A program made the position numbers and the translations under genes. Below are positions 18,228 to 37,584 of a stretch of DNA of 61,555 nucleotides, piece after piece. The notes beneath the pieces are model-generated. The model was not told the origin of the DNA and ran no database searches. It worked only from the letters and a program-made list of their open reading frames with translations. Numbering within the stretch: position 1 is the stretch's first letter; each line of letters starts with the position of its first letter. This DNA is from an uncultured Planctomycetales bacterium (GTDB taxonomy: Bacteria; Omnitrophota; Gorgyraeia; Gygaellales; JAHJCI01). Location of the stretch: NCBI GenBank assembly GCA_964592485.1, contig CAZQEY010000006.1:1-61555 (forward strand), given 5' to 3'.

Positions 18228-18334
18228 GAGTAATCCTCCTGATAAAATATAAAGGGAACAACGGCCTTTTTACCATAAATTCCACTTACAGCCAGATATA
18301 ATTTAGTCCTGTCCAGAATATTCATGATTTCATC

Positions 18335-18745
18335 CTACCCTTTAGATACAATAACTTTAACTATTGCAATTGATAACCAGGTTAATCCCCAGTAACATGC
18401 ATATAACACGAGTATCACTTTAGCCCATCTTTTTTTCTTTATCGCACCCGTTCCTCCTATAAATAAAAATACAGGGGCTAAAATCACTGCCAAGCCAGCA
18501 AAGAATTTAATTCCGGGTAAAACTTGGTGCCCCAAAGCGTTTAAATACCAGAGAACTATAATTATGGGGTTTACTATAGTTACGGAAGTTATCCCCTCGA
18601 GTATATAGCTGAATCTACTAAATGCAACAAAGCCCAAATCAAAAATCATTCTACCAAATAAACAAAAATAATATAATGCCGCGGCAAGAATACAAAATAT
18701 GCCAACGCTTCTACTCAGAATATTCGTATTTTTGACCTCATGCAT
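18335..18745 (-). CDS. Hypothetical membrane protein
   Basis: 136-aa ORF with about 4 hydrophobic segments. Confidence 0.6.
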   Translation of the reverse strand: MHEVKNTNILSRSVGIFCILAAALYYFCLFGRMIFDLGFVAFSRFSYILEGITSVTIVNPIIIVLWYLNALGHQVLPGIKFFAGLAVILAPVFLFIGGTGAIKKKRWAKVILVLYACYWGLTWLSIAIVKVIVSKG

Positions 18746-18769
18746 ATCTCTTCCGCAATTAATATAAAT

Positions 18770-21109: not shown

Positions 21110-21138
21110 AACTATTTCTGATAAACGGTTTTTCCGTT

Positions 21139-21356
21139 TTAAAATTTCACCTCTACCGGATTATCAGCTTCTTCCGTTGACTCAAAGTAAGCTCTTTTTT
21201 TAAATTCGAACATTGAGGCAATTATATTACTCGGGAATATAGCTATTTTTGTATTGTATTCCCTAACGGCATAATTATACCTCTGCCGGGCAACATTTAT
21301 CCTGTTCTCAGCTCCTTCTATCTGGTCCTGAAGGACCATGAAATTAGAACTTGCTT
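21139..21356 (-). pseudogene. lemA: LemA family C-terminal fragment
   Basis: KASSNFMVLQDQIEGAENRINVARQRYNYAVREYN...FPSNIIA...PVEVKF; the N-terminal part is missing. Confidence 0.8.
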
Positions 21357-21536
21357 TTACTGTTCTTGGCGCTCTTGTTTTATCTTATCAAGTACAATAT
21401 ATAAAGAATTCTTCGCTCTGATTATACCATCATAGATTCCTTTTGCATAGAAGGAAAAGCTACTCCAGGGATATTCTAAGAGCGCAGTTGTTATACCTGC
21501 TCTTAAAGGATTGTTTTCAATATAACGGGCGCATTC
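21357..21536 (-). pseudogene. REP-associated tyrosine transposase (RAYT/Y1)-like C-terminal fragment
   Basis: Manual translation ECARYIENNPLRAGITTALLEYPWSSFSFYAKG...ERQEQ*, matching the RYIE.NP.RAG...YPWSS motif; no start and no HUH region. Confidence 0.75.
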
Positions 21537-21662
21537 AAAAAAAGAGACGCTTCTAATTTTTGGAAAAATAGAAACGCCCCGAATTTTAAAAAAGCCTTAC
21601 TCCTGAAAAGTAAGGCTCTGTCAAATTGGGCTGCCATATTGGGCGAGTTTCACAACTTGTTT

Positions 21663-22136
21663 TTACTGCTTAAAAATAGCCCTCCTTTTAAAAAAGTCGC
21701 TTAATTTATTATACTTAGCTATCCAGACAACTACAATCCCATAACCGGTTTCATTGGTTAAATGTATTGTAAATCCGTCTTTATCCAGGGATAATAATCC
21801 TATCTTAAATAGCTTTCCATTTATTTTCCTCTCCGCCGATGTTATCCTCTTACTTAATTCTAAACTCTCCGCAATAACCCTGTCCTCCCATACCATCTTA
21901 ATCTTAAAAACAATAGATACAGGGCAATGCCCGACTTCTGTTATAGCTATCTGCCCGGGCCTTATTTCCCCTCCCTTATAAAAGTAACCGCTTGTTTCAT
22001 GTGTAATTGACAAATATCCATAGATAAGAACTATTGCGGCGGTTGAGAAAGCTATAATTTTGGATGATGATTTTTTGGTTAGGAAAATGCCTACGAATAC
22101 TGCGATTAACGCTATGGATAAGACCATTAGTTCCAT
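21663..22136 (-). CDS. Hypothetical protein with two N-terminal TM segments
   Basis: 157-aa ORF; no family recognised. Confidence 0.55.
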   Translation of the reverse strand: MELMVLSIALIAVFVGIFLTKKSSSKIIAFSTAAIVLIYGYLSITHETSGYFYKGGEIRPGQIAITEVGHCPVSIVFKIKMVWEDRVIAESLELSKRITSAERKINGKLFKIGLLSLDKDGFTIHLTNETGYGIVVVWIAKYNKLSDFFKRRAIFKQ

Positions 22137-22359
22137 ATCTAATATTTATCTAAAGTAGTTATGGAAAATATCTGCCCGGTCGTTATCTCAATGAGTTGTC
22201 GTTATCATTCTACCAAATATTATTCATAAAGACAAGGAAAAAAATATAATTCCACTGGATTCGGATAAGTGGCTTGGGCCTAAATACAGGAAATATTTTG
22301 CCTATTTAAAAAAGAAAATAACATAAAAGCAGGTAGCAAGTTAATTACACACTTTTACC

Positions 22360-22388
22360 TTGACGGACATATAAATAAGATTTAGAAT
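22360..22388 (+). promoter_or_regulatory. Sigma70-like promoter
   Basis: TTGACG-17 nt-TAGAAT upstream of the 22475 ORF. Confidence 0.55.
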
Positions 22389-22474
22389 ATTAAGAAAGAA
22401 ATCCTATATACAACAAAGACCGCAAATTAGGAATTTTGTATATTGATTCTCGGCTGTAAAAAGGAGCAAAGGCT

Positions 22475-22828
22475 ATGTCTGGAAATATTTACGGATTTGT
22501 AATACTGTTTATGATTTCAATCGGTGTTGCTCTAATAGTGTATGCGTTGACTCGCCGGAGCTTACGACATCTTTTAGATGACGTAATTAAGCTTCCTTCC
22601 GGGACGAGTTTCTATTTACGCCTGTTCTCAATAGGCCTCTTCTTTATCGCCTTTTCCGCGTCTTTGGAAATTAAGTTTGACCTAAAGGCGGATGCTTCGT
22701 TCATGGAGTATGTCTGGAAAATCGCTATCGGACTTTCCACTGTGTTTGGAAACACATGCTTATTTATTATAGGATATCTCACCCTTATAACGGTTCTTTT
22801 AGCCGTTTTAAAATATAAAAATGTCTAA
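22475..22828 (+). CDS. Hypothetical 3-TM membrane protein
   Basis: 117-aa ORF, RBS AAGGAG, overlaps the next ORF. Confidence 0.6.
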   Translation: MSGNIYGFVILFMISIGVALIVYALTRRSLRHLLDDVIKLPSGTSFYLRLFSIGLFFIAFSASLEIKFDLKADASFMEYVWKIAIGLSTVFGNTCLFIIGYLTLITVLLAVLKYKNV

Positions 22829-23219
22829 CGAAGAATATCTTATAGTTTCTTACTTTATTGTAGGAGTGGTTTCTTTAGGGCTGGCCTTGGTAACTTACCT
22901 TTTGCTTCAGCGCAGCTTCCACGGTGTGATAAAAACTCTCCCCAGTAAACACTTTTTCCGGATTCTTCGAAACTTATTCCTAATGGGCATTGTCCTTCCA
23001 GCCCTTTTCGGGTTTTTCTCTGTAAGCTTCTATAGCTGCTCAAGGCAAACGTATGAGGAGATTATTGCGGAAAGAGCCTATCTGGTTGCAAAAAACCAAG
23101 AGCAGCTATCAACCTCTCTATTTTACGTAGTCATCGCACTTTTTGTATGGGGCCTAATCATCGGAAGTGCTCTTTTTATTATTAAGAAAACTAAGGCAGC
23201 AAAAAATAGCTTAATTTAA
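22821..23219 (+). CDS. Hypothetical 3-TM membrane protein
   Basis: 132-aa ORF coupled to the previous one, similar topology. Confidence 0.6.
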   Translation: MSNEEYLIVSYFIVGVVSLGLALVTYLLLQRSFHGVIKTLPSKHFFRILRNLFLMGIVLPALFGFFSVSFYSCSRQTYEEIIAERAYLVAKNQEQLSTSLFYVVIALFVWGLIIGSALFIIKKTKAAKNSLI

Positions 23220-23637
23220 TGCAGTCACCCGACCGCAAACTGCGCTATTGCTTTTAGGGACGTCCCTAAAAGGGACACCCTTTAGAAAAACTTATCTCCT
23301 AACCTCTTTATTAATAAATACTTCCTTTGGTCTAGCGCGGTACCTCAAGGAATATCCCCCCGTCTACGCAATATGTATTTTATATCATAGATAAAAACCC
23401 TCTGTAATATATTCTATCGCAGAGGGTTATAAGTAGCAACTCCTCTTGGATTAAGTCAACGAACTATTGCTATAATCTTACCAAATGCCATTCACGCTTG
23501 CAAGAAGAAAGATTTATAGGCCCCGCGCGCTGGGGCGCGCTTCCGTGTCTCCCGTGCGTCCGCTTCAGCGTCGCTGGGGTGTGTTTTAAAACCAACTTAA
23601 ATCAGAGTGGAATTTTACTGGCCTTGGAGTATAATTA

Positions 23638-23678
23638 TAAAAAGGCTAGCGGGGTGCGGTCAGCCAGCCTTTTAAAAA
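23638..23678 (+). repeat. 41-nt junction hairpin, copy 1
   Basis: TAAAAAGGCTAGCGGGGTGCGGTCAGCCAGCCTTTTAAAAA; homologous to 27252-27292 and 31172-31212. Confidence 0.8.
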
Positions 23679-23700
23679 TATATAGGATTAATTTTGCCTT

Positions 23701-24624
23701 ATGCTGAATAGGATAGATTATATATTATATGGCTTAGGCTATTTATTTAATACAAAAGTACTGAGAAAACATAGGCCCTTTGTAGGCGCCTTAGTGATAA
23801 ATGAAAAATGCAATTTGAAATGTGCCCATTGCCAAGTTTCAAATCGTCCCTTGCTTGATTTATCTTTCGAAGACACCCAAAAGGGGCTTAGAACATTTTA
23901 CGACATGGGAATAAGGTCAATAGCTATAGGAGGTGGTGAACCATTTCTATGGGAAGATAATGGCTATAGGGTTGAGGATGTTGTGGGTTTTGCGCGACAA
24001 ATGGGGTTTAAATTAATTATCATATATACTAACGGTACATTCCCTTTAAAAATATCAACAGATGCCTTATTTGTCAGCTTAGACGGAATCAAGGAAACCA
24101 ACGATACCCTTCGCGGGACTTCATATGATAAAATTATTGAGAATATCAAGAGGTCAAACCACCCCAACTTATGGATTAATTTCACAATAAATAGAAAAAA
24201 TTATAGTGAAATAGAGCTTTTTTGTAGTGAAATGGAAAAAATTAAACAGACCAAAGGAGTATTTTTCTATTTTCATACTCCTTATTATGGAATTGACGAA
24301 CTGTTTTTGAACTTGGATGAAAGAAAAAAAATTATCGAGAAGATAATTGCACTCAAGAGTAGATTTAGAATATTGAATTCCTATGCTTGCCTTGAAGCTG
24401 TATATAGGGAAGATTGGGAAAGACCATCTAAAATGTGCTATGTTTATGCTCATAATAAATTATATCAGTGCTGTAGATCTATAGGGAATCAGGAGGCGTG
24501 TGATAATTGTGGATATCTTAGTTACGCTGAAATTATACATGCTCCAAGACTACGCCTAAGTTCAATCATAACGGCGCTGAATTTTTTGCCCTTAAGTAAA
24601 AGTCAAATAGAAGCAATTGCATAA
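23701..24624 (+). CDS. Radical SAM protein with C-terminal twitch-like Cys cluster
   Basis: CNLKCAHC; GGGEPF; CYVY...CCR...CDNCG. Confidence 0.85.
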   Translation: MLNRIDYILYGLGYLFNTKVLRKHRPFVGALVINEKCNLKCAHCQVSNRPLLDLSFEDTQKGLRTFYDMGIRSIAIGGGEPFLWEDNGYRVEDVVGFARQMGFKLIIIYTNGTFPLKISTDALFVSLDGIKETNDTLRGTSYDKIIENIKRSNHPNLWINFTINRKNYSEIELFCSEMEKIKQTKGVFFYFHTPYYGIDELFLNLDERKKIIEKIIALKSRFRILNSYACLEAVYREDWERPSKMCYVYAHNKLYQCCRSIGNQEACDNCGYLSYAEIIHAPRLRLSSIITALNFLPLSKSQIEAIA

Positions 24625-25895
24625 TGGTAGACTATATTACTCGAAATATTAGAACATATTTTACTGGAAATAACTCAGATTATACGTTCAGAAAAATTGA
24701 CAGAGTAAAGCCTACCAAAATAGACTCAATCAACCTGTATATACATATTCCATTTTGCAATAATCTATGTCCATATTGTCCATACTTCAAAGTTAAATAT
24801 GATTCTCAGAAAGTACCTGTATATTTAAAAGCTATACTTAATGAGATTGGAATTTATCGTAACTTATTTGGTAAGGTAAATATATCTTCTATCTATATAG
24901 GAGGTGGAACCCCCACATTATTAATAGACGAACTTGGCATTATTTTTAAACATATACATGCTAAATTCAATGTTGCAGGGGACATATGCATAGAGGTTAA
25001 TCCATATGATATTACAGAAGAGCTTATATCGAAGCTAAAAGATAATAATATAAAACTGGTAAGTGTAGGTGCGCAAAGCTTTTTGAATAAACATTTAAAT
25101 TTTATAGGGCGGAAGTATCGATCCTCAGTAGTTAATGATGCATTGGGCCAGTTGGTTAAGGGGGGTTTTGAATCAATAAATATCGATCTTCTTTTTGCAT
25201 TACCGAACCAAAGCTTAAGAGATGTAACTTATGATTTAGAAAAGGCGATTGAAAGTGGGGTTAATCAGATAACAACATACCCATTGTTTACATTTCCATA
25301 TACCTCGATAGGTAGATATTTGAAATTAAAGAAAGTAAAAATGCCAAATTTACTTAAGAGGCATAGGCAGTATTACCTTATACATGAATATTTATCAGAC
25401 AAAGGCTTCAGTCGGGTATCTGTATGGGGGTTTAAGAAAGGAAATGTCCCCCGATACTCTTCTGTAACTAGAGACCAATATATTGGGTTAGGAGCAGGTG
25501 CAGGTTCACATCTTCCAGATGGATTCTATTTAAACACATTTTCAGTGGAAGAATATATAAAAAAGTGCATGTCAAACAACTTTCCTGTGGCTCTATATAT
25601 GAATTTCACGAAAAATATGCAGAAATATTTTTGGTTATATTGGCGTTTTTACGATACATATATTTATAAAGACGAATTACATAGCAAATTTGGGCTGAGT
25701 GATGAAAAATTAAATAAATTATTCGCAGCATTCAGACGGCTAAAACTGCTTCAAGAGAATGATACGCAGTATGAATTAACAATACGCGGGTCATTTTGGA
25801 TTCATTTGTTTCAGAATTATTTCTCATTGCGGTATATTAATAAGGTTTGGGGTATTGCAATGAAAAAAGCATATCCTCAGGAAATTAGTTTGTAG
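24624..25895 (+). CDS. HemN/HemW-like radical SAM protein
   Basis: LYIHIPFCNNLCPYCPY, IYIGGGTPT, NIDLLFALPNQ, YIGLGAGAGS. Confidence 0.85.
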   Translation: MVDYITRNIRTYFTGNNSDYTFRKIDRVKPTKIDSINLYIHIPFCNNLCPYCPYFKVKYDSQKVPVYLKAILNEIGIYRNLFGKVNISSIYIGGGTPTLLIDELGIIFKHIHAKFNVAGDICIEVNPYDITEELISKLKDNNIKLVSVGAQSFLNKHLNFIGRKYRSSVVNDALGQLVKGGFESINIDLLFALPNQSLRDVTYDLEKAIESGVNQITTYPLFTFPYTSIGRYLKLKKVKMPNLLKRHRQYYLIHEYLSDKGFSRVSVWGFKKGNVPRYSSVTRDQYIGLGAGAGSHLPDGFYLNTFSVEEYIKKCMSNNFPVALYMNFTKNMQKYFWLYWRFYDTYIYKDELHSKFGLSDEKLNKLFAAFRRLKLLQENDTQYELTIRGSFWIHLFQNYFSLRYINKVWGIAMKKAYPQEISL

Positions 25896-25924
25896 TCGAT
25901 GCAGCTATAGAAAAAGCCATAAGC

Positions 25925-26674
25925 ATGTCAAGTAAAGTGATATCTTCTGGAATGTTATATACTAGAGATAAAGTTAACATTGCATATGAATACATTAAGG
26001 AGAGCCGTAAATCAATAGTTATTATATGTCCGGGTTTTTTTAATAGCAAAAGCAACAGATGGATGCGTAAGACAGTCGATTTAATTTCCGAGGAATACGA
26101 TATCATAATTTTTGATTTTAGAGGACATGGTGATAGTGGAGGTAAATTTTCGTGGTTAGCTAAGGAACATTTTGATTTAGAAGCCGTGTTAGACTATGCA
26201 AAAAGACAAGGATACAAACAGATTGCCATAGTAGCATTTTCTCTTGGAGCGGCAGTTGCAATAAATGCTATTAGTAAGAGAAAAGATGTAACTAGTATGG
26301 TGTTAATAAGTTGCCCCTTAAGTTTCTGGAAGATTGATTATCATTTTTGGGAACCAGGAATGTTTTGGGACCTGAAGGATAATATTGAGTGTAATTGGGA
26401 AGGTAAAGGTTCACGAACTACAAATTTGTTTATTCCAAAACCAAAGCCTATTAAGATGATTAGCAAAATAGATACTACCGCAATACTTTTTATCCATGGA
26501 GATAGTGATTGGATTATTAAAGATTACCACTCTAAGAGACTTTATGAACAGACACAGACATACAAAAAGCTTGAGATAATAGAAAAAGGGCTTCATGCTG
26601 AACGACTTATTCAACAATATCCTAACGAGATGAAACGCCTTTTACATGGATGGTTTTCAGATACAATTAAATAA
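25925..26674 (+). CDS. Alpha/beta hydrolase
   Basis: FDFRGHGDSGG, AFSLGA nucleophile, IHGDSD, GLHAE. Confidence 0.85.
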   Translation: MSSKVISSGMLYTRDKVNIAYEYIKESRKSIVIICPGFFNSKSNRWMRKTVDLISEEYDIIIFDFRGHGDSGGKFSWLAKEHFDLEAVLDYAKRQGYKQIAIVAFSLGAAVAINAISKRKDVTSMVLISCPLSFWKIDYHFWEPGMFWDLKDNIECNWEGKGSRTTNLFIPKPKPIKMISKIDTTAILFIHGDSDWIIKDYHSKRLYEQTQTYKKLEIIEKGLHAERLIQQYPNEMKRLLHGWFSDTIK

Positions 26675-26750
26675 AAATTAAAACGCAGTTTAGAATATAT
26701 AGATTGTATGATAGAATTACTGTAACGATTTTTAACGAAAAGGAGGGTAT

Positions 26751-27221
26751 ATGAAATTGTTAGCTTTTACTAAAACTCACACGATACTTACAACTATTTG
26801 GGCTTTCTTTGCTTTACTTTGCTTGGTGTGGCTTATAGGTAATATTGCAGGGATATTTTTTCCAAATTCGTGGTTAGCCCAAAACAATATGCCAAAACCT
26901 CCTCAAGGAGGATGGCCGGAAGCGATTTTGGTTTATTTCCATATTTCCATGATTGCTAGCATCATCTTTCCTATATCATTTTGCTTCATTACTTTGTATG
27001 GTCTTCTAAAAAGACACCTCTTCAGCATATTTACCGGATATGTTTCACTTTCTACAGGTTTGTTCACGAATCTAATTTTCAACGTAGTCACTATAAGATG
27101 CGGGACTGTAGATTTATTTTTTATCCTCAAATGTGCTATTGTTTTAATTATTGAATTATTGGCAGCAGTTTATTTAGTAAAATATACTGCAGAATGCCTT
27201 AAAAACATAAAGACAGCCTAA
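26751..27221 (+). CDS. Hypothetical membrane protein
   Basis: 156-aa ORF, 4 hydrophobic segments, RBS AAGGAGGG. Confidence 0.6.
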   Translation: MKLLAFTKTHTILTTIWAFFALLCLVWLIGNIAGIFFPNSWLAQNNMPKPPQGGWPEAILVYFHISMIASIIFPISFCFITLYGLLKRHLFSIFTGYVSLSTGLFTNLIFNVVTIRCGTVDLFFILKCAIVLIIELLAAVYLVKYTAECLKNIKTA

Positions 27222-27251
27222 GTCATATAATATATAATCTATCCTATTCAA

Positions 27252-27292
27252 TAAAAAGGCTGGCCGGATGCGGGCGGCCAGCCCTTTAAGAA
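27252..27292 (+). repeat. 41-nt junction hairpin, copy 2
   Basis: TAAAAAGGCTGGCCGGATGCGGGCGGCCAGCCCTTTAAGAA; lies between convergent genes and may double as a terminator. Confidence 0.8.
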
Positions 27293-27345
27293 AATGTCAA
27301 TACCTAATCATTATTTTGACCTGTATTATGCAGATTGCCTCTTTC

Positions 27346-27849
27346 TTATTTATAATCAAAAGCTTGCTTATCTCTATTAGCTACTACGATAAGTAAAATA
27401 ATATTAAACACTATTCCAAATGCCCCACCAATCAAAACAGATATACCCATAAATGACATAGCAGCCATTGTTATAAGTCCTTTTAAAATAGTAAAGCCAA
27501 TGCTTATACCAGCAGCTAAATAGAACATTTTAATAGCTGATTTCTTAATCTGAAAAAGACCAATTGAAGCATATATATAAAATCCAGCAATAATCAAAGC
27601 GATAATTCCCGATATTATACACCAAGTGCCAAACCATTCGGGGGTATCCCACATTTTCTGCATTATATTCATAGCTTCCTGTGATGTTCCATATTGCTTT
27701 TCCAGCATTTCCTGCATTTGTGGCATCATTTCTTTTTGCATCTCAATCATTTTAGGCATCATAATTGTCTGTCCAGCTCCTAAAAGACCGAAACATCCTA
27801 AGATAATGCCAATAATCCCCACTACTTTAGCCCAAGTTGGTTTTTGCAT
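27346..27849 (-). CDS. Hypothetical membrane protein
   Basis: 167-aa ORF with 4 TM segments; last gene of the ytr-like operon. Confidence 0.6.
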   Translation of the reverse strand: MQKPTWAKVVGIIGIILGCFGLLGAGQTIMMPKMIEMQKEMMPQMQEMLEKQYGTSQEAMNIMQKMWDTPEWFGTWCIISGIIALIIAGFYIYASIGLFQIKKSAIKMFYLAAGISIGFTILKGLITMAAMSFMGISVLIGGAFGIVFNIILLIVVANRDKQAFDYK

Positions 27850-27868
27850 AACTTATTCCTTTCTCCAA

Positions 27869-29653
27869 TTATTCTGGATAATATTCCTTCATTTGTTTAT
27901 CTTGTAATCTTAATTGTTGCTCAATTTCATCGACTTCTTGACTGGTTTCGGTAGATTGAGCGGGTAGAGTGAAATTTTCTATTTTAAAATCTTTATGTTG
28001 TTTTCCTATTTTCACCGCATCCAGTCTTATAAGCTCAGCATCTTTTAACCATTCTTTATTAATTTTGGGCAGAGATACGTTTCTATCATTGATATATGTA
28101 AAATCAAATTGTTTAGCTTTGGTTTCAAGTCGTGTCGGGCCATATGCTGCCATCATATCTGCATATAGATTAGCTCCTATCTCTGTTAAAAATGCCTCAT
28201 TTCGTTTCTTATTTGCTATTAAATAGACATGGTTAAAATCAGAATATATATCTCGCGCAAAGTCGTATTTTGATTTCTTTTCAACTGTTCGATCAAACAA
28301 TAAATTTATTTTCTTTTCAGCAATAACAACTGTCACACCATTTGGTCTTTCCAGTATGTCATAAATTATTATTTGCTCAGAGCCAAATAAATCTCTCGTG
28401 CCTTGCTTTAAAGGCATTTGAGAACCAATCTTGTATTTATAAATATCAAATTCAGCATGAGCTGAATACGTTCCCATCTTATTTTTATAATTATTGAAAT
28501 CTAACTCTTCTATGCTAAATATTTCTACATGAGCTAAATCTTCTTTAAAAGGATTTAACAATTTAATATCTCCTAAAGCCGCCTGCAATGGAGCCATAAA
28601 TTTTTCATTAGAAAATGTTTCCTTTTTACTCGTTGAAACATATTTGGATTCGAGAATTTTTCCGTCAGGATATTTCATCTGTACTTCTTTTAATTCTCTT
28701 AAAATTGCGAACTGCTCAATAGGCAACCCCATAATTGTTTGCTTAGCACTTATCGACTTTTCCCTAGCATCTTTTTTGCTAAAACGGAACTCGTCAGATA
28801 CAACGATGTTTTCAGTATTAAATCCTACGGAGATGGATTCTACAATATCGACTGTACTTTTAACACTGCTTGCCTCTTTTAGAAAATCCCAATTCCATGT
28901 CCTTGTAAAAATAATCATAATCAGATAAGCGACAACAAACCATCTCACTGTCCTAGCGGTGTATCTTGTTAAAAACTGATGAATTACAAGAATAAAACCA
29001 ATTATAATAACGTATATATCTTTTGCCACTCCACACGATGCTTCCAAAGATGGATTCTTAAACATTTCAAAATTATAAAGAATATTTTTGGGAATCGGCA
29101 AAAACATCATAGCTATAGAACTGACAATTCCGAATACTATAAGCACTGTAAAGACAATAATCCCTACTAGCGCATATTTACTAAACTTTGGTGTTACCAC
29201 AGCTAAAATTAAGAAAGGAACAATAAAAGCTATTTTCTCTAACAATATTTCTGGAACCATAAGCAATATATGATGAGTGGTTACACCATTTGCTGCCAAC
29301 ACAATAATCTCAGCGATAAGAGGTAAGGCAACTAATAATGTCAATATTAGACATGATTTTGTTATTAGCAGGCCCTTTTTAGAAATTGGTCGGGTAAACC
29401 AAAATGATGTCGTTCCAACTAATGAATCATCTTGAATAAGCAAAGGAACAATAACAATTATCATCAAACCCTGCAGAATACTAAATAGCTTTGCAAGCAA
29501 AGGTAAAAACATTTGGAACTCTAGAAATTCGGCAGCTAAATCAATACCACCTATGCCTAAAGCTGATTGAGCAAGAATAAGCAAGAACCAAACAAAAAGT
29601 AATATTTTGATACGGAGAAAATCTTTTTTAAACAAATATGGAATAAAATACAT
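27869..29653 (-). CDS. ABC-2 type permease-like membrane protein with large C-terminal soluble domain
   Basis: 7-8 TM segments, FWFTRPISK...K motif; follows the ABC ATPase. Confidence 0.7.
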   Translation of the reverse strand: MYFIPYLFKKDFLRIKILLFVWFLLILAQSALGIGGIDLAAEFLEFQMFLPLLAKLFSILQGLMIIVIVPLLIQDDSLVGTTSFWFTRPISKKGLLITKSCLILTLLVALPLIAEIIVLAANGVTTHHILLMVPEILLEKIAFIVPFLILAVVTPKFSKYALVGIIVFTVLIVFGIVSSIAMMFLPIPKNILYNFEMFKNPSLEASCGVAKDIYVIIIGFILVIHQFLTRYTARTVRWFVVAYLIMIIFTRTWNWDFLKEASSVKSTVDIVESISVGFNTENIVVSDEFRFSKKDAREKSISAKQTIMGLPIEQFAILRELKEVQMKYPDGKILESKYVSTSKKETFSNEKFMAPLQAALGDIKLLNPFKEDLAHVEIFSIEELDFNNYKNKMGTYSAHAEFDIYKYKIGSQMPLKQGTRDLFGSEQIIIYDILERPNGVTVVIAEKKINLLFDRTVEKKSKYDFARDIYSDFNHVYLIANKKRNEAFLTEIGANLYADMMAAYGPTRLETKAKQFDFTYINDRNVSLPKINKEWLKDAELIRLDAVKIGKQHKDFKIENFTLPAQSTETSQEVDEIEQQLRLQDKQMKEYYPE

Positions 29654-29664
29654 AAGCTCGTCTC

Positions 29665-30573
29665 CTATAATTCAGAAATCTTAAATTTTTTGGCAAATAC
29701 AATAAATATCTCTTTTAAAGTCATTCCCGATACTTCTATATTGGAACAATTGGGGAAAATCTCTCGAATCTTATCCTCGCTCTTTCCTTTTATATATTGA
29801 CTATCCACAAAATGAATGGTTCTATCCTGTTGTTTTGGTAAAAACCATTCTTCACGAAACCTTGATTTAACATCAGTTGCCTCCCTTATAGTCAGTTCAA
29901 ACCGCCTGAATCTATTTTGTAATACTTCAGCCTCTTCGACAATTTTTAGCAATCCTTTGTCGATAATGCCTACCCAATCAGCTAATCTTTCAACTTCGTC
30001 AATATCGTGAGAAGATATGAATATCGTCCAATTCTCACTCTCGGTAATATCCAACACTCCTGATATAAATTCATCACGAACTAAGGGATCTAAACCACTA
30101 AAAGGTTCATCAAATATTAGTAATTTTGGTCTATACGCTAATGAAGAAACTAACGCTGCTTTCATTTTCATGCCTCGAGAAAGACTCTTCAGTTTTTGCT
30201 TTGGAGATAAACTAAACTGTTCTGTCAAATCGCTACAAAATTTATCATCCCATGTTGAATACATTTTTTTGCAATAATTCAAAAATTGATTTACTGTCAT
30301 CCACTCTGGCATTTCTTGATTCTCAGATACGTATCCAATTTGAGCGAATTCTTCTGGACCGAGTTTCTTAGAATCAACTCCCAATACAATCGATGAACCC
30401 TGAGTAGGTTTCATAATATTCATTACATTTTTGATTGTCGTTGTTTTGCCTGCTCCATTTGGGCCCAGAAAAGCAAAAATGCTACCGGCTGGAACGGTTA
30501 AATTTAAATTGTTAACAGCTATATTTTTACCAAATCTTTTCGTTAAATTTTTTGTTTCAATAGCATTATTCAT
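29665..30573 (-). CDS. ABC transporter ATP-binding protein (YtrB-like)
   Basis: GPNGAGKTT, LSRGMKMK, DEPFSGLDP, SSHDIDEVER. Confidence 0.88.
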   Translation of the reverse strand: MNNAIETKNLTKRFGKNIAVNNLNLTVPAGSIFAFLGPNGAGKTTTIKNVMNIMKPTQGSSIVLGVDSKKLGPEEFAQIGYVSENQEMPEWMTVNQFLNYCKKMYSTWDDKFCSDLTEQFSLSPKQKLKSLSRGMKMKAALVSSLAYRPKLLIFDEPFSGLDPLVRDEFISGVLDITESENWTIFISSHDIDEVERLADWVGIIDKGLLKIVEEAEVLQNRFRRFELTIREATDVKSRFREEWFLPKQQDRTIHFVDSQYIKGKSEDKIREIFPNCSNIEVSGMTLKEIFIVFAKKFKISEL

Positions 30574-30961
30574 TTTTTCCTTCCTTATTATTTAATTTCC
30601 AATGGCGATCAATCGCATCCACAACTTCCTTTTTTTTGATAGATAATCGCTTGGATTCAACAACCAATTTTTCTACCTCATTATTAAGTATCTTATCACG
30701 CTGAGCTTTAGTCGCTATACCGAATTCAGAAACAGTACTGCCAATACCTGGTTTTATTTCTAATAGCTTTTCCCTAACTAAATGAGCTACCACTTTTTGA
30801 GCAGTATTAGGGTTTATCTTTAATTCCTTACTCATTTCTCTAACTGAGGGAAATCGATCCCCCGGCTTCAACTGCTCTGTTACAATGGACTTTTTCACAG
30901 CGTACACCACCTGTTCATAGATTGGGATACCAGATTGAAATTTTATTGTAAAGTTTATCAT
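30566..30961 (-). CDS. GntR family regulator, YtrA subfamily
   Basis: PIYEQV...LKPGDRFPSVREMSKELKINPNT; short C-terminus; precedes ABC genes. Confidence 0.9.
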   Translation of the reverse strand: MINFTIKFQSGIPIYEQVVYAVKKSIVTEQLKPGDRFPSVREMSKELKINPNTAQKVVAHLVREKLLEIKPGIGSTVSEFGIATKAQRDKILNNEVEKLVVESKRLSIKKKEVVDAIDRHWKLNNKEGKNE

Positions 30962-31018
30962 ATCTAAAAACCACAGTTTGTTAAATACCTAATTAGAGAG
31001 TTACAATTTTTATTTAAC

Positions 31019-31050
31019 TGTATTATATCACATAATACACCTATTGTCAA
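31019..31050 (-). promoter_or_regulatory. Consensus promoter overlapped by a YtrA-type palindromic operator
   Basis: TTGACA(31050-31045)-17 nt-TATAAT(31027-31022); TGTATTA-N7-TAATACA at 31019-31039. Confidence 0.8.
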
Positions 31051-31171
31051 GGTTAGGGCGTTATTTTTCTAATCTCCCTACTGCTACATGCCATCCAGTT
31101 AACAAGCTGCCATAAAGGCATAGGCTCGTCCGCATTCAGTAGAAACATAATTAAATTAAGGACACATACCA

Positions 31172-31212
31172 TTCTTAAAGGGCTGGCCGAGCGCATGTGG
31201 CTAGCCCTTTTA
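31172..31212 (-). repeat. 41-nt junction hairpin, copy 3 (inverted)
   Basis: Reverse complement TAAAAGGGCTAGCCACATGCGCTCGGCCAGCCCTTTAAGAA. Confidence 0.8.
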
Positions 31213-31370
31213 TTATAGCGTAAAATTTAGTTTACTTTTCTAATTTTTGGCGCTCAAGTGCTATACGCGAGAGGCGCGGTATAGCGCAGTCCATAGAAGT
31301 TTTTAACGTGGCTTAAGGCGATATAGCGGACGACCATAGTTTTTGGGAAGCATTAGAGGACGTGCGGCTG

Positions 31371-31497
31371 GCGGCTGCCCGCACCTAGCTGCAAACCGAC
31401 GAGAATTTTTGTCCTAAAAAGAAAAAGTCCCTACTCCTAGGAGCAGAGACTTTTTCTTTGGAAGGCAAAATTTTGGGTGCGGAAAAGTTCTGCCTCT
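31371..31497 (+). repeat. Left 127-bp inverted repeat flanking the phospholipid cassette
   Basis: About 88% identical by manual alignment to the reverse complement of 36038-36163; internal hairpin AAAAAGTCCCTACT...AGCAGAGACTTTTT. Confidence 0.88.
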
Positions 31498-31498
31498 A

Positions 31499-34228
31499 CT
31501 ATCTATCTTCTTTATCTATCCTTATCTTAAGATCCCTAACTCTCCCTTCCACTTCTTTAACAATATCTTTATAGACTTCGTATCCTGTTTTTTTCCTTTG
31601 AAACTCATGAGCATATATGGGTTCGGCGAATGTTACAATAATCTTCCTAGGCCTAGGAAAAATACTTCCCTTCGGAAGAGCTGCATATGCTCCGTAAATA
31701 TAAGTAGGAATCAAGGCTACGTCAAGCTCTAAAGCCAAAGAACCAATACCTGGCTTAAATGGCATAAGTTTGCCTTCAACCGACCGCGCGCCTTCTGGGA
31801 AAAGTATAATTGACTTTTTCTTTTTGATAATCTCTGAACATATCTTTAAGCCTTTAACAAAATTCCCAAAGCGCTCAAAGGCGAACGTGTTAAAAGACAT
31901 CTCTACAAGATGGCGTTTTAAAAAACTGGTGTAAAAATAATCCTGTGCCGCCGGAGCTATAACATCCTGCGTTTCAGATAACGGCAGACAACTAAATAAA
32001 ATTGGGAAATCCAACATACTGGTATGATTACTGGCAATGATAAAAGATTTTTTACTGGGAATATTTTCTATGTCTCTCACCTCAAGCCGAAAATAAATTT
32101 TTGCAAACAGGCGAAATAAACAGGTACTAATTAACCGGATGGTCCTCACGAAAACATTCCTTTTAAGAATTGATTCTATATCTTCCTCGCTAATGGATAC
32201 ATCGTCAACTCTCCCATTTTTGTATTCGGAAATGATTCGCACAAAATCATTAAATGTGTTAATTTCATAAGCCAATTCATCCGGGATAGTTAAACCAAAT
32301 TCCTTCTCTACAAGGCATAGCAATTCTACCTTCATAAGTGAATCTACGCCAAGGTCATTATAAAGATTTGAATGTGTCCTAATGTTACTCTCGGGAATTT
32401 TAAGTAAATCAGCGAGAATATTTTTCAATTTCAAAGTAAACTCATCTTCTCTAATCTGTATCTGCTCAACAAATTGGTCCTGTTTCGCCCGTCCTGTCTC
32501 TTCGTCTTTCTTTTGTATGAACTCAAGCAGCACCTTTCGCTTTATCTTCCGTGTAGATGTTTTGGGCAAATCACCATTGTAAATCTCAAAATCTTTAATC
32601 CTTTTATAATCAGCGAGATTCTTACTAAGTCTATCTATCTCTAGAGAGATTTTTTCTTTTATTGCGGCCTCACTTTTTCTCTTGCTTTCATCAAAATATT
32701 CAAGATTGGGCACAACCACAGCATAAACCTCTTCACAGCCTTTTCTTGAACCCGTAGTTACAACTTTACCCAAAACGCAAATCTCTTTTATATAAGGGCT
32801 GTTGCTCATTACTTCTTCTAATTCCTCCGGAAAAACCTTTTTGCCCACACCTAAAACAATTAAGTTTTTCATCCGGCCCGAAATATATAAAAAGTCATCC
32901 TCATCTATCCAACCAATATCACCTGTATGGAACCAACCATTTCTAATAACCTCGCCAGTTTTTTCTGAATGCCGATAGTAGCCCTTCATAACATTCGGAC
33001 CGCGTACTATTATTTCACCTTCTTTGCCTCCAGTCTCAGAGCTCCTTAAAATTTTAACATCCAATCCCTCAAGCGGTTTTCCTACAGAGCCGTATTTTTT
33101 TCTTTTAGCCGTATTCAGGCTAATCACGGGAGAGGTTTCGGTTAATCCGTAGCCCTGAAGTACGTAAAAGCCCATTGCGTTAAAATCAATCTCTACTGAA
33201 GAATCTAAAGGGGCACCTCCACATACAAAAGTTTCTATATGGCCGCCAAATTTTTTATGCACCGGATAAAATAAAAATCTGCCAATACGAATATTAAACT
33301 TTAGTAAAAATTGCGATATGTGAAGTAATGTTTTAAAAATCTTCTGTTTTATTGGATTTTGTTTATCTAATTCCCGCATAATCTGACCATGGAACATCTT
33401 TAAAACAAGTGGCACGCATATCATATTTGTAGCTTTAATTTTTCCCATTAAAGTAAGCAGGCCAGTAGGCTTTAGACTCTTAGCATAGGTTATGCTTGCT
33501 CCTCCGTATAAGGGCCCAATAAGACCGCCGGTTATCTCAAGCATATGATTAAGCGGTAAAATAGATATAAAGCGATTTTTTCTGCTGAAAGGGGTAATCC
33601 TGTGTAATGCTATTACCTCAAACAAAAGATTACCATAGGTTAATTCAACGCCTTTAGCTACCCCCGTTGTGCCGGATGTATAAACAATAAGTGCCGTATC
33701 TTCGGCCTTAATTTCATCCGGACGATTGCGCTGATCGCCTGCTTGGCATTTCAGGTCTTTCAGATAAATAACTTCTTTGTGTCTTTCTTGAGACTCATCA
33801 AAACTTACAATATACCCTAAAGAAAGCAGCTCATTTTTTAGCTTAGTAATGATAGGTAAAAATCTCCCGGAAACAAAAATACACCTTGCACCTGAATCTC
33901 TAAGAACGAAAAGGATCTCTGCCTCAGTTAATTTAATATCCATGGGTACAGTAATACCTCCCGCTGAAATAATACCGAAGAATGTTATTACCCATTCGGG
34001 CCGATTTTCAGAAAGAATGGCTATACGGTTATCTTTTTTAATACCCATTTTGATAAGAGAAGCAGACACATCAACTGAACACTCTCTCAGCTCATCAAAG
34101 GAAAAACTACGCATGCCCTCCTCATCTTCAATTTGCAATGCAACCGCATTTTTGTGCTGTTGACTTATAGCGTAAAGCAAACCTAGCACCGTTTCATCTC
34201 TTACTGGTTCTCTACATATTTTATACAT
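31499..34228 (-). CDS. Acyl-CoA synthetase (AMP-binding)-ACP-PlsC acyltransferase fusion
   Basis: YTSGTTG, QGYGLTETSP, FHTGD (ANL); DLGVDSL (ACP Ser); NHTSMLD and FPEGARS (PlsC). Confidence 0.9.
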   Translation of the reverse strand: MYKICREPVRDETVLGLLYAISQQHKNAVALQIEDEEGMRSFSFDELRECSVDVSASLIKMGIKKDNRIAILSENRPEWVITFFGIISAGGITVPMDIKLTEAEILFVLRDSGARCIFVSGRFLPIITKLKNELLSLGYIVSFDESQERHKEVIYLKDLKCQAGDQRNRPDEIKAEDTALIVYTSGTTGVAKGVELTYGNLLFEVIALHRITPFSRKNRFISILPLNHMLEITGGLIGPLYGGASITYAKSLKPTGLLTLMGKIKATNMICVPLVLKMFHGQIMRELDKQNPIKQKIFKTLLHISQFLLKFNIRIGRFLFYPVHKKFGGHIETFVCGGAPLDSSVEIDFNAMGFYVLQGYGLTETSPVISLNTAKRKKYGSVGKPLEGLDVKILRSSETGGKEGEIIVRGPNVMKGYYRHSEKTGEVIRNGWFHTGDIGWIDEDDFLYISGRMKNLIVLGVGKKVFPEELEEVMSNSPYIKEICVLGKVVTTGSRKGCEEVYAVVVPNLEYFDESKRKSEAAIKEKISLEIDRLSKNLADYKRIKDFEIYNGDLPKTSTRKIKRKVLLEFIQKKDEETGRAKQDQFVEQIQIREDEFTLKLKNILADLLKIPESNIRTHSNLYNDLGVDSLMKVELLCLVEKEFGLTIPDELAYEINTFNDFVRIISEYKNGRVDDVSISEEDIESILKRNVFVRTIRLISTCLFRLFAKIYFRLEVRDIENIPSKKSFIIASNHTSMLDFPILFSCLPLSETQDVIAPAAQDYFYTSFLKRHLVEMSFNTFAFERFGNFVKGLKICSEIIKKKKSIILFPEGARSVEGKLMPFKPGIGSLALELDVALIPTYIYGAYAALPKGSIFPRPRKIIVTFAEPIYAHEFQRKKTGYEVYKDIVKEVEGRVRDLKIRIDKEDR

Positions 34229-35297
34229 ATATCCAGTTAATTAAGTGGAAGGTAATGGGGATGGTAAAAATGAGGCTGTCAACTCGATCTATAATTCCGC
34301 CATGCCCGGGAAGCAGGGTGCCGGAATCCTTTATCCCGATATCCCGCTTTATCATTGAGAATACCAAATCGCCCATCAAGCCTAAAATTCCTATTGCCAG
34401 GCCTAAAATAGTGCCAAAAGAATAAGTCAATCTTCCCTTTGGAAATTCGGGCATAATGGGAATAAAAGCTAACGATAAAATAGCGACAACTAAGGCGGTT
34501 AATATTCCTGCTCCCCATGTTTTCTTGGGGCTTACACTTTCTGCAATTTTAGTATTCAAAATTTTAAATATAGTATTTCTGGGAACCTTTTCGTAGCATA
34601 GCGATAAGCCCTTACCTATCCAAAACGATAAGAGATCTCGAGCCTCTGTCAAAAAGAAACAATACAGGAGCACCATTGCACCCATATTAACCATAAAAAG
34701 GCTGTGCCCAAGATTAAAAACAAAAAACATAAGCCCAATAGAAATAAGCCCCAAAGACCTTATCGTTCCTTCGGTTCTGTTTTGCAAAACGAAAATAATA
34801 GGTATGAGCAAAAAGGCATAAACCGGAGCAAGAATAATGTACAAACCATACCATTGAATATAAGCTAAATATACAGTGACCAGAATGACTAGATAACATA
34901 ATAATATAGGCAGCCTATCTTTCAAAGAAAGGTTTTTGCTTCCCCCGGTTTCTTTCTTCGGCAGAAGCGAAAAATACTCCTTCAACGCCAAAAAACAAAG
35001 AAATCCCATAAAACAGAAGGAAACAATTCTATGAGTTGAGACTGCTATCATAAAAACCGCGGCCATCCACCACCAAGTTATTGTCCTGTTAACTATTTCT
35101 TCGGCCAACTTTGATTTCCTAATTACTAATATAGCAGCAACGAAGCTAAAAAATAAAAGCAAACCAATAATAACTCCCATAATAATAAGCATAGAATAAT
35201 TCTGCTCATAAACCAAGATGCCCAAGGATGTAAATATCATTACTACAAATATAATAAATTTCCTTAAGCCTTTAAGCATCTTTACCTCCCGATCCAA
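34221..35297 (-). CDS. Phosphatidate cytidylyltransferase family (YnbB/CdsA-like)
   Basis: SPKKTW.G, GDLVFSMIKRDIGIKDSG.LLPGHGGIIDRVDS. Confidence 0.88.
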   Translation of the reverse strand: MDREVKMLKGLRKFIIFVVMIFTSLGILVYEQNYSMLIIMGVIIGLLLFFSFVAAILVIRKSKLAEEIVNRTITWWWMAAVFMIAVSTHRIVSFCFMGFLCFLALKEYFSLLPKKETGGSKNLSLKDRLPILLCYLVILVTVYLAYIQWYGLYIILAPVYAFLLIPIIFVLQNRTEGTIRSLGLISIGLMFFVFNLGHSLFMVNMGAMVLLYCFFLTEARDLLSFWIGKGLSLCYEKVPRNTIFKILNTKIAESVSPKKTWGAGILTALVVAILSLAFIPIMPEFPKGRLTYSFGTILGLAIGILGLMGDLVFSMIKRDIGIKDSGTLLPGHGGIIDRVDSLIFTIPITFHLINWIYV

Positions 35298-35920
35298 GTA
35301 TAAGATTCGTATTTTTTGCCTTTAGCTGCTTGAAGTATTTTTTTTATTCTTATGATGCAGGTCAAGCCAATTAAAACAGATACAGCTCCGAGATAATAAG
35401 GCAGGTAATGAATAAATTCCGGCTTAAAAAATGTGATAATAGCGAACAAGCCCATCCAGACTGCTCTATCAGGCTTGCCTCCACCAAAGGTCTCATGTCT
35501 ACGTGTACCTCCTGGCATACTTTTTCCAAGAACCCCGAAAAATTCTGCAGCCCAAGTCAAAATAAGATATATAGCTAATAAAAAAGTCGGGCTATTGGGT
35601 ACAAAAAAAAGTGAACCATAACAAACTGTATCCCCGACAATATCTAACGTCTCATTCCAAAGTTCGCCAGCAACGGTTGCAGTTTTATACTCACGGGAGA
35701 GCATTCCGTCTAAAGTATTCATCACCATCCGCATGAATAAAAAGAAAGGCACAAGCAGCAATGCCCACCGATAATTATTGAAAGAAAGTCCAATATAATA
35801 GCCTAATGCAGTTAGAACTACAAAAATACATCCAAAAAAAGTCGCCTGATTAGCAGTCATCCAAGAGCCACCAAACCAACGGACTACTTTCTGAAAATTC
35901 CCTTTCTGCAGATAAAGCAT
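35282..35920 (-). CDS. CDP-alcohol phosphatidyltransferase family (YnbA-like)
   Basis: NTLDGMLSRE...GELWNETLDIVGD motif; GKPDRA. Confidence 0.88.
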   Translation of the reverse strand: MLYLQKGNFQKVVRWFGGSWMTANQATFFGCIFVVLTALGYYIGLSFNNYRWALLLVPFFLFMRMVMNTLDGMLSREYKTATVAGELWNETLDIVGDTVCYGSLFFVPNSPTFLLAIYLILTWAAEFFGVLGKSMPGGTRRHETFGGGKPDRAVWMGLFAIITFFKPEFIHYLPYYLGAVSVLIGLTCIIRIKKILQAAKGKKYESYTWIGR

Positions 35921-36037
35921 TGTATCCTCCTTTTATTTTCAAATATGGATGATTTCTATTTTAAGAATCGAACAACCGTAAACACACGACTTTTTATTAT
36001 ATCACAAAAAAATAAAAAAACATTTCTTCGTTGTGCA

Positions 36038-37075: not shown

Positions 37076-37103
37076 TTGACTTAAATCTTATTTTGGGTAA
37101 AAT
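37076..37103 (+). promoter_or_regulatory. Probable tRNA promoter
   Basis: TTGACT-16 nt-TAAAAT, 10 nt before the tRNA 5' end. Confidence 0.55.
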
Positions 37104-37113
37104 AAAACCTACT

Positions 37114-37443
37114 TCCCCCGTAGCTCAGTCGGTAGAGCAGATGGCTGTCAATTCGCCAAAGGCGAATTGACCCCGAGCATCACCCTAAAAAAGTTAAGAT
37201 GCGAGGGGTTAATCATGGCAGCTTTCCCGAGAAATCGGGATTGAAAAAGCGGGCTAATTCAGGAGAGCCCTAAAAGTAAGGGTAATCCTGAGCTAAATCT
37301 TCGCTAAAGGCGGAGTAAATGTGCAGAGACTATATACCCGCTATCCAAACGTAAAAACGAGGATAAAGATATAGTCCAAGTCCGAAAGTAATTTCGGGTT
37401 ACTTGTAACCATCGTGTCCGAGGTTCGAGTCCTCGCGGGGGAG
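37114..37443 (+). tRNA. tRNA-Asn(GUU), intron-containing: exon 1 37114-37148, exon 2 37406-37443
   Basis: Joined exons give a 73-nt cloverleaf: acceptor TCCCCCG/CGGGGGA, discriminator G, D arm GCTC/GAGC, anticodon arm GATGG-CT GTT AA-CCATC, T arm CGAGG-TTCGAGT-CCTCG; CCA not encoded. Confidence 0.92.
37149..37405 (+). ncRNA. Group I self-splicing intron, 257 nt, no ORF, resembling bacterial tRNA (IC3-like) introns
   Basis: 5' exon ends in U and intron ends in G; P3 GCGGG/CCCGC, P4 TTCAGG/CCTGAG, P5 GCCCT/AGGGT, P7 GCAGAGACTA...AAGATATAGTCC, P8 TATCC/GGATA, P9 CCGAAA/TTTCGG; IGS GCAGCT at 37218-37223. Confidence 0.9.
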
Positions 37444-37450
37444 TTAATTT

Positions 37451-37478
37451 AAAAAGGCCGTCACAAGACGGGCTTTTT
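37451..37478 (+). terminator. Intrinsic terminator after the tRNA
   Basis: AAAAAGGCCGTC-ACAA-GACGGGC-TTTTT. Confidence 0.75.
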
Positions 37479-37584
37479 GCTTTTAACTCCCCAATAGTAG
37501 GCTCGAACCTATCAGTGGAACCTAAGTCGGAAGAGAACTATCCGAATAGCGGCCTAAGAGTGGCTCTGAAAGAACATCGGCAGA

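Follow-up and report, generated by a model that had tools for sequence, protein, structure and literature searches.

Can a tRNA gene of a bacterium outside Patescibacteria (the Candidate Phyla Radiation, CPR) be interrupted within its anticodon by a group I intron and, if so, is such an intron a recent arrival or an inheritance of the lineage? The 61,555-nucleotide stretch of DNA analysed here (the window) raises this question, as it carries on its forward strand, at positions 37114-37443, a tRNA-Asn(GUU) gene into which a group I intron of 257 nucleotides (nt) is inserted between anticodon bases 35 and 36. With a probability of about 0.88, we read the locus as a free-standing tRNA-Asn(GUU) gene from a bacterium of the Omnitrophota, divided between U35 and U36 by a compact intron without an open reading frame (ORF), which would be removed by ordinary self-splicing.

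Although eight splice registers restore a 7-nt anticodon loop, a uridine as the last exon nucleotide, U(-1), and a guanosine as the last intron nucleotide, omegaG, are combined in a single one, in which the exon ends at U37148 and the intron at G37405. This register yields the loop CUGU-UAA and an intron at 37149-37405. The joined exons measure 73 nt, form a flawless cloverleaf and are called tRNA-Asn(gtt) by ARAGORN, their 5' half contributing the acceptor strand UCCCCCG, the D arm, the anticodon stem strand GAUGG and CUGU, and their 3' half UAA, CCAUC, the T arm, CGGGGGA and the discriminator G. From position 7 to position 62 they are 85.7% identical to tRNA-Asn genes annotated in E. coli records, unbroken over the junction, and a U1-A72 pair together with G73 is usual for bacterial tRNA-Asn. 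With tRNA-Asn as the host gene, an intron after the fourth of the seven loop nucleotides and U(-1)/omegaG at its borders, the locus belongs to the class named Asn.4Ug.

The intron is recognised by the Rfam model RF00028, whose match at 37185-37398 (+) spans the full model (1-253), scores 93.1 bits (E 1.2e-22; gathering score, 50) and is the sole Rfam match in the 61.5-kb window; a search pattern for the core occurs once in the window and in none of 100 shuffles. The P3-P9 core, the guanosine pocket in P7 and the joining segment J8/7 are all present, as are the group I hallmarks of a U.G wobble within P1 and a terminal omegaG. The wobble, U37148.G37218, arises as GCAGCU (37218-37223) pairs with exon GGCUGU (37143-37148), and P1 runs two pairs further into the intron (C37149-G37217 and A37150-U37216) to reach 8 base pairs (bp). 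Intron base +1 pairs with the base that precedes GCAG in 100 of the 104 related introns described below (C-G in 46, A-U in 33, G-C in 13, wobble in 8), and in 105 of 108 once metagenomic members are included; since this pair covaries, the U.G wobble sits inside a genuine helix. When 27 tRNA-Asn introns are aligned, 94.2% of the cells in helices P2-P9 are paired, against 32-50% with the partners slid by 1-3 columns, and compensatory changes are found in 29 of 46 core pairs, with P2, P3, P6, P8 and P9 covarying, P7 invariant (as fixed by the search pattern) and the GNRA loops conserved as GAAA in L2 and GUAA in L9. The minimum free energy (MFE) of the precursor is -130.4 kcal/mol (z = -7.3 versus shuffles), and the MFE fold recovers P1, both hairpins of the P1 loop (L1), P2, P4/P5, P6, P8 and P9. 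No ORF of at least 90 amino acids (aa) overlaps the intron at 37149-37405. Its compact layout without P2.1 or P7.1/7.2 and its GNRA loops L2 and L9 fit subgroup IC3, whereas J3/4 and J7/3 differ from the IC3 seeds. If P1 is extended through exon -5 to -9 of the anticodon stem, four of five positions pair in the window; with a family covariation of 1.64 versus 1.57 in shuffles, this extension was dropped as a general feature. The original prediction, made from the letters of this DNA, had named tRNA-Asn(GUU), the junction CUGU-UAA with U35 before and G at the end of the intron, the pairing of GCAGCU with the exon and an intact P3-P9 core, and had proposed RF00028 and a tRNA model for the joined exons as checks; on all of these points it agrees with our results.

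These elements suggest how the precursor would be processed. Transcription would start at about 37114 and end at a terminator near 37475; promoter-like and terminator-like sites flank the split gene on either side. P1 would arise when the guide UGGCAGCU (37216-37223) pairs with the last six exon and the first two intron bases, and U35.G37218 would mark the 5' splice site; as the P1 loop carries an extra 69 nt, folded into two hairpins, P1 would close a three-way junction. The P3-P9 core is predicted to fold around the guanosine-binding P7, aided by the GNRA loops of P2 and P9, whereupon an external guanosine would attack after U35. G37405 (omegaG) would then occupy the same P7 pocket, and the 3'-OH of U35 would attack after G37405, joining CUGU to UAA. 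The predicted product is a 73-nt tRNA-Asn reading ...GGCUGUUAACC..., to which CCA would be added afterwards.

Relatives were collected by scanning one genome per species of the Genome Taxonomy Database (GTDB) with a pattern composed of the guide, P7/J7-3 and J8/7, which gave at least 120 matches. Since ARAGORN in intron mode and permissive splice enumeration produced many false registers, the splice sites of the relatives were mapped under constraints (exon end CUGU, site 4, paired anticodon stem). Among the matches listed, to which the counts and identities below refer, 104 introns were resolved, about 50 of them in tRNA-Asn, 33 in tRNA-Asp, 20 in tRNA-Tyr and 1 in tRNA-His. Patescibacteria-type labels are attached to about 80-85% of the sampled relatives and to 35 of the tRNA-Asn cases; among the other tRNA-Asn cases, the labels include Omnitrophota twice (L100, a single-cell genome, and L091, a metagenome-assembled genome, MAG), Ignavibacteriota once (on a 434-kb contig), 'Bdellovibrionales' twice, 'Bacteroidetes' and 'Planctomycetia' once each and 'Gammaproteobacteria' several times; some of the third-party (TPA) labels are doubtful. 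Thus the 35/36-split tRNA-Asn is common, and the window is not its sole case outside CPR.

The nearest of these relatives are L100 (identity 84% for the intron core and 97% for the 5' exon), L091 (79.5%) and L036 (74%), and a scan of metagenome contigs with a clade-specific pattern added six loci (L125-L130), of which the four with complete introns entered the tree. In this intron phylogeny, a check that the original prediction had also proposed, neighbour-joining of 108 intron cores unites the window with L100, L091, L036 and the four metagenomic members, which had been chosen by the clade-specific pattern, at a bootstrap of 196/200; the branching order inside the clade is poorly supported. 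The tRNA exons are at least 90% identical to those of the window within the clade, versus a median of 75% and a maximum of 83.6% for CPR tRNA-Asn. The D-loop segment is a 5-nt GYYGG in the clade and mostly 4 nt in CPR tRNA-Asn, and the best CPR intron core is about 73% identical to that of the window. The exons thus co-diverge with the intron, which argues for inheritance within the lineage and against a recent transfer from CPR or a chimeric contig. Moreover, the arrangement is found in at least eight diverged members with exons at least 90% identical, which points to purifying selection on exons and intron alike.

The host of the window is very probably a member of Omnitrophota, in the Planctomycetes-Verrucomicrobia-Chlamydiae (PVC) group, as judged from one marker protein and from gene content. 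LysS, encoded on the same contig (13888-15366), has homologs 59-83% identical among the 120 best matches listed, and every one of these that is named by NCBI is a 'Candidatus Omnitrophota/Omnitrophica bacterium'. The contig further encodes LolCE, a TolC-family outer-membrane protein, MacAB with an RND adaptor, ClpB and RadA; LolCE, TolC, MacAB and the adaptors indicate an outer membrane and a diderm gene set that is not of CPR type. A lipid-synthesis gene near the tRNA gene has taxonomically mixed matches, uninformative for the host. The GC content around the tRNA gene, 0.40, equals that of the contig without a break at the gene, and neither integrase or mobile-element genes nor a genomic island was found flanking it in the window. 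A search by synteny for an uninterrupted orthologous tRNA-Asn, or empty site, gave none: the radical-SAM neighbour lacks a close homolog, the lipid-gene neighbour has many homologs but no tRNA nearby on their contigs, where gene order is not conserved, and window proteins matched the flanks of intron-bearing loci only through generic ABC ATPases.

While L1 is at most 17 nt long in nearly all sampled introns, within the clade of the window it measures 69 nt in the window itself, 41 in L126 and L130, 102 in L129, 120 in L100 and 134 in L036, the shortest being 7 nt; L091 and L125 have a short L1 without insertion. Every expanded L1 in the clade folds as a three-way junction that is closed by P1 and contains hairpin A, which begins at the intron 5' end, and hairpin B. 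Both hairpin stems show compensatory changes in the clade, and for hairpin B covariation of the outer stem is seen between the window, L100, L129 and L036 (ACCCC/GGGGU, ACUCC/GGAGU, AUCCC/GGGAU and AUCCU/AGGAU). We also observed that a tandem G.A mismatch (5'-GA/3'-AG) recurs in both L1 hairpins of the clade (window 37153-37212; L100:6363-6476; L129, L036); in hairpin A of the window the 5' GA has become UC, hence Watson-Crick pairs. The tandem G.A could be a protein- or RNA-docking motif, or merely a tolerated mismatch.

The same loop houses genes in relatives. In L128 it contains hairpin A, a ribosome-binding site AAAGGAGG and an ORF of 109 aa (L128:762-1091 +) with CxxC...HH...CxxCH motifs, which crosses the guide and P2 and stops in J2/3; the Pfam HNH model matches this ORF over its full 47 positions at 20.6 bits, just below the cut-off of 21.4. 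Homologs with 50-69% identity lie inside L1 of ten further loci (L038, L115, L095, L039, L046, L022, L116, L120, L049, L076), and free-standing ones beside the split tRNA gene in five (L057, L072, L059, L107, L040). Altogether an HNH ORF of about 100 aa, its 3' end overlapping the guide and P2, occupies L1 in 11 loci, which suggests that the intron family spreads, or once spread, by homing and that L1 serves as its cargo site. The window intron holds no homing-endonuclease ORF, and tblastn with the HNH gene of relatives found no HNH trace in the window (best E = 8.7, outside the intron). A repeated mini-element or a decayed ORF was rejected as the nature of the window L1, which occurs once in the window and shows no resemblance to the HNH gene. 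The window copy would be best explained as an endonuclease-free derivative inherited within the Omnitrophota clade.

How firmly can the locus be taken as an intact, self-splicing tRNA-Asn of Omnitrophota? Several points weigh against it. The search pattern fixed P7 and the CUGU/GCAG part of P1 in the collected relatives, so covariation is uninformative for them. P10 has at most two pairs in the window (U.G and A-U), and family-wide 57 of 108 are paired versus 51.9 +/- 3.8 in shuffles, so that the choice of the 3' splice site would fall to omegaG and the core by themselves; some group I introns can do without P10. The 69-nt L1 insertion parts the strands of P1, and its hairpin A can compete with the two inner P1 pairs, which could slow folding. 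The host is assigned from a single marker, LysS, and gene content. Finally, the 61 kb of genome in view contain no other tRNA, and a second, intact tRNA-Asn may exist elsewhere. Such a second gene and the weak P10 would suit a decaying relic, in which the split gene is a tRNA pseudogene and translation proceeds with another, uninterrupted tRNA-Asn; so would the missing HNH trace, as intron decay typically involves losing the endonuclease gene. However, all core helices are intact, the sequence fits the covarying structure of the family, U.G, omegaG, J8/7 and the P7 pocket are all in place, the flawless cloverleaf retains its promoter-like and terminator-like sites, and at least eight diverged members have kept the arrangement, which leaves decay only a slight chance. 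A foreign origin, whether a CPR tRNA gene or intron was recently transferred or the assembly is a CPR-Omnitrophota chimera, would agree with the predominance of Patescibacteria-type labels among the relatives and with the habitats, such as groundwater, that Omnitrophota and CPR have in common. Yet the best CPR core is only about 73% and the best CPR exons are only 83.6% identical, the window groups with the single-cell and MAG copies of Omnitrophota, the clade has a D-loop type of its own, and the GC content runs through the gene unbroken with no integrase or mobile-element gene beside it, so that we give a foreign origin a very slight chance. Another junction or identity, such as tRNA-Thr(UGU) with an intron at 33/34 or tRNA-Asp(GUC), has on its side that ARAGORN in intron mode calls many related genes Thr(tgt) i(33) and the window gene Tyr, and that 58 of 106 relatives have U(-1)/G(omega) at site 2 as well as at site 4. 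In the window, by contrast, site 4 alone combines U(-1) with omegaG, the guide GCAG on CUGU puts the wobble at U35 and not at U33, and the exon body matches annotated tRNA-Asn genes through the junction and has their typical U1-A72 and G73; the probability of another identity is therefore close to nil.

Within the preferred reading of a vertically inherited, self-splicing tRNA-Asn intron, it is the L1 hairpins of the window for which a selected structure and a leftover scaffold carry roughly equal weight. That they are neutral debris, left by deletion of an HNH gene and without a selected structural role, falls just short of an even chance: the HNH ORF sits in exactly this loop in relatives, the length of L1 varies greatly within the clade, and L091 and L125 manage without the insertion, but hairpin A is retained upstream of the ORF in L128 as well as in all ORF-less members with an insertion. 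This retention, the compensatory changes in both stems and the recurrent tandem G.A indicate some constraint, at the least for holding the P1 strands together. A broader picture can be offered tentatively, and we think it unlikely to hold in full: Omnitrophota may keep a vertically inherited lineage of CUGU-site introns of their own, in which the P1 loop was remodelled from an HNH site into a three-way junction that bears recurrent tandem G.A motifs and helps P1 to form; the position of this lineage beside the CPR introns would then record an old exchange between two ultra-small, co-occurring phyla.

The class to which the intron belongs has a record. The part of Williams 2020 consulted (bioRxiv 10.1101/2020.01.27.920355) names seeds Asn.4Ug, Asp.4Ug, Tyr.4Ug and Lys.4Ug, site 4 being 35/36, so the 35/36 class has been on record since 2020; the classical sites are given there as fMet.2, Leu.3 and Arg.5/Ile2.5, matching the 33/34 (fMet), 34/35 (Leu) and 36/37 (Arg) quoted in the original prediction. 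Its tentative statement that 35/36 introns had been reported only recently is at odds with these 2020 seeds, and their supposed restriction to Patescibacteria does not survive the finding of at least two Omnitrophota as well as Ignavibacteriota, Bdellovibrionales and other labels among the tRNA-Asn cases. Its premise of a host outside CPR is upheld by LysS, closest to Omnitrophota, and by LolCE, TolC and MacAB, which speak against the Patescibacteria origin that it said would remove the novelty of the host. As for its suggestion that such a host would extend the class or indicate transfer, a modest extension of a known class stands, while a one-off or fresh transfer does not, given two other Omnitrophota genomes, six metagenome contigs and co-diverging exons. 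The 35/36 arrangement in tRNA-Asn is thus already catalogued and common in CPR, and the window widens its known host range and adds no new kind of element. A literature search on tRNA-borne group I introns of Omnitrophota found no paper linking the two in the collection searched.

Comparison with known systems places the intron more closely. It shares with the Asn.4Ug class, as described in the consulted part of Williams 2020, the tRNA-Asn host, the 35/36 insertion and U(-1)/omegaG. The only published Asn.4Ug seed found there, Pam37.Asn.4Ug, is of another lineage, in which a hairpin is inserted between P7 and P3' and P1 is UGUA/UGUA, and aligns poorly to the window core, with a score of 25 versus 55.5 for Wba81; percent identity to the Williams seeds is non-discriminating, and it is the alignment score alone that favours Wba81. 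Like the window, Wba81.Asp.4Ug and the sampled CPR CUGU-site introns (Asp, Tyr, Asn) place a guide GGCAG on CUGU plus intron +1, and they have in common with it the core signatures AUUGAAAAA, GGCUAAUUC, GAGCUAAAU, GUAAAUGUG-AGAGACUAUAUACC and AUAGUCC, the compact P2-P9 layout and GNRA loops L2 and L9. The clade of the window differs from them in CAGG/CCUG in P4, in GCAGAG rather than GUAGAG before P7, in Omnitrophota-type exons and, for most members, in a large structured L1. The IC3 introns of Azoarcus pre-tRNA-Ile(CAU) and cyanobacterial tRNA-Leu(UAA), for which mechanism and structures are established (PMC13168695), are likewise compact (~200 nt), self-splicing group I introns of the anticodon loop. 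However, they lie at 36/37 and 34/35, respectively, and have a short L1, and J3/4 and J7/3 are AAA and GA(C) in IC3 seeds versus CUAA and UAUA in the family of the window, although the GNRA loops L2 and L9 of this family are as in compact Azoarcus-type tRNA introns. Group I introns that bear homing endonuclease genes resemble the relatives of the window in having an HNH gene in a ribozyme loop, with its own ribosome-binding site and a 3' end overlapping the core; in contrast, the window copy is ORF-less, and the endonuclease of its relatives is putative.

A group I intron inside the anticodon (35/36) is hereby documented in a diderm, non-CPR phylum, in a clade that retains endonuclease-carrying copies. 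No new mechanism is revealed, the expanded P1 loop being a modest structural curiosity, and the practical value lies in tRNA annotation. Run by default on the entire window, ARAGORN reports 0 tRNAs, overlooking the split gene, which is the sole tRNA-Asn gene seen on the contig and may be the only one that its host has and needs; in intron mode the gene is mislabelled. The original prediction had thus rightly expected scanners to miss the gene, while the misreading as tRNA-Asp that it foresaw was not seen, the intron-mode call being Tyr. As default tRNA finders miss the split gene, Omnitrophota and many CPR genomes will look devoid of tRNA-Asn, and this apparent absence distorts inferences of completeness and codon usage. 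The clade also lends itself to work on the spread of tRNA introns between phyla and on the tolerance of ribozymes for large P1 insertions.

Table 1. Coordinates of the split tRNA-Asn gene, its intron and flanking sites in the window.
Feature	Position	Strand	Basis
Candidate sigma-70-like promoter: TTGACT, 16 nt, TAAAAT; ends ~10 nt 5' of the tRNA	37076..37103	+	10/12 consensus match only; presumed function
5' exon: tRNA-Asn positions 1-35 (acceptor 5' strand, D arm, anticodon stem 5' strand, loop C32 U33 G34 U35)	37114..37148	+	97% identity to 5' exon of Omnitrophota single-cell locus L100
P1 5' strand: exon GGCUGU + intron CA; 5' splice site after U37148	37143..37150	+	MFE pairs with 37216-37223; +1 pair covaries 100/104
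Group I intron, 257 nt, ORF-less	37149..37405	+	RF00028, junction, covariation
L1 hairpin A, UCGCC-AAA-GGCGA; extendable to 37149-37169, competing with two inner P1 pairs	37153..37165	+	Homologous hairpins in L100, L036, L129, L126, L130, L128
L1 hairpin B, tandem G.A mismatches flanked by ACCCC/GGGGU and GCAUC/GAUGC; site of HNH ORF in relatives	37166..37212	+	Unique in window
Internal guide sequence UGGCAGCU = P1 3' strand; G37218 pairs with U37148	37216..37223	+	
P2, 6 bp, GAAA tetraloop	37225..37240	+	Compensatory changes in 6/6 pairs; loop G and last A invariant
P3 5' strand, pairs with 37337-37341	37249..37253	+	Compensatory in 3/5 pairs, 99.3% paired
P4 (37258-37263 with 37287-37292) around P5 (37267-37271 with 37279-37283)	37258..37292	+	P4 98.8%, P5 86.3% paired
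P6 distal stem, 7 bp	37299..37315	+	Compensatory in 7/7 pairs
P7 5' strand GAGACUA, bulged A, guanosine-binding helix; pairs with 37372-37377	37326..37332	+	Invariant, pattern-fixed
P3 3' strand	37337..37341	+	Covariation alignment
P8	37342..37365	+	Compensatory in 4/5 pairs
J8/7 + P7 3' strand AAGAUAUAGUCC	37366..37377	+	Conserved in all relatives
P9, 6 bp, GUAA tetraloop	37382..37397	+	Compensatory in 6/6 pairs; loop G..AA invariant
omegaG, final intron nucleotide	37405..37405	+	
3' exon: tRNA-Asn positions 36-73 (U36 A37 A38, anticodon stem 3' strand, variable loop, T arm, acceptor 3' strand, G73); CCA not encoded	37406..37443	+	
Intrinsic-terminator-like hairpin CCGTC ACAA GACGG, then T run	37458..37479	+	Consensus match only

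Further observations touch the annotation of these genes. Many Asn site-4 introns offer U/G at site 2 too, hence the ARAGORN call of tRNA-Thr(UGU) with a 33/34 intron; the seed Pgr210.Thr.2Ug, as it appears in the consulted part of Williams 2020, has the same cuguc/GGCAG P1 with the wobble on the second U, and may really be Asn.4Ug. The 3' CCA is not encoded in the window and L100 (GGGGGAG-TTA/TTT; window 37443-37446); it is encoded (GGGGGAGCCA) in L091, L036 and the five metagenomic loci that include the 3' end (L125, L126, L127, L129 and L130). Thirteen intron loci belong to MAGs that bear the TPA label 'uncultured Gammaproteobacteria bacterium' (L010, L018, L029, L044, L046, L071, L072, L075, L081, L084, L090, L106, L112); their introns and exons group with CPR, one of the contigs, at ~1.0 Mb, has the size of a whole CPR genome, and the labels may be wrong. 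The same core pattern was also found in tRNA-Leu(UAA), at its classical 34/35 position, both in the IMG/VR contigs L003 and L004, which are classed as viral, and in the rumen Clostridiales MAGs L005 and L078.

Elsewhere in the window, GC content is 0.32-0.38 at ~18000-36000 versus 0.41-0.45 on either side; this low-GC part holds several ORFs without a family match, two radical-SAM genes and a DUF1266/TPM-domain protein, and no integrase was found in it. The products of a lipid gene cluster at 31499-35920 (-) are a protein of 909 aa with matches to AMP-binding acyl-CoA ligases, a CTP-transferase-like protein and a CDP-alcohol phosphatidyltransferase of 212 aa. This last protein has homologs (60-80% identity) across Omnitrophota, Planctomycetota, Zixibacteria, TA06 and Desulfobacterota. 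The 907-aa counterpart of the ligase in locus L131 has PP-binding and acyltransferase domains too, and the L131 lipid cluster adjoins a gene with a phage-integrase domain; the cluster may be a horizontally mobile lipid module.

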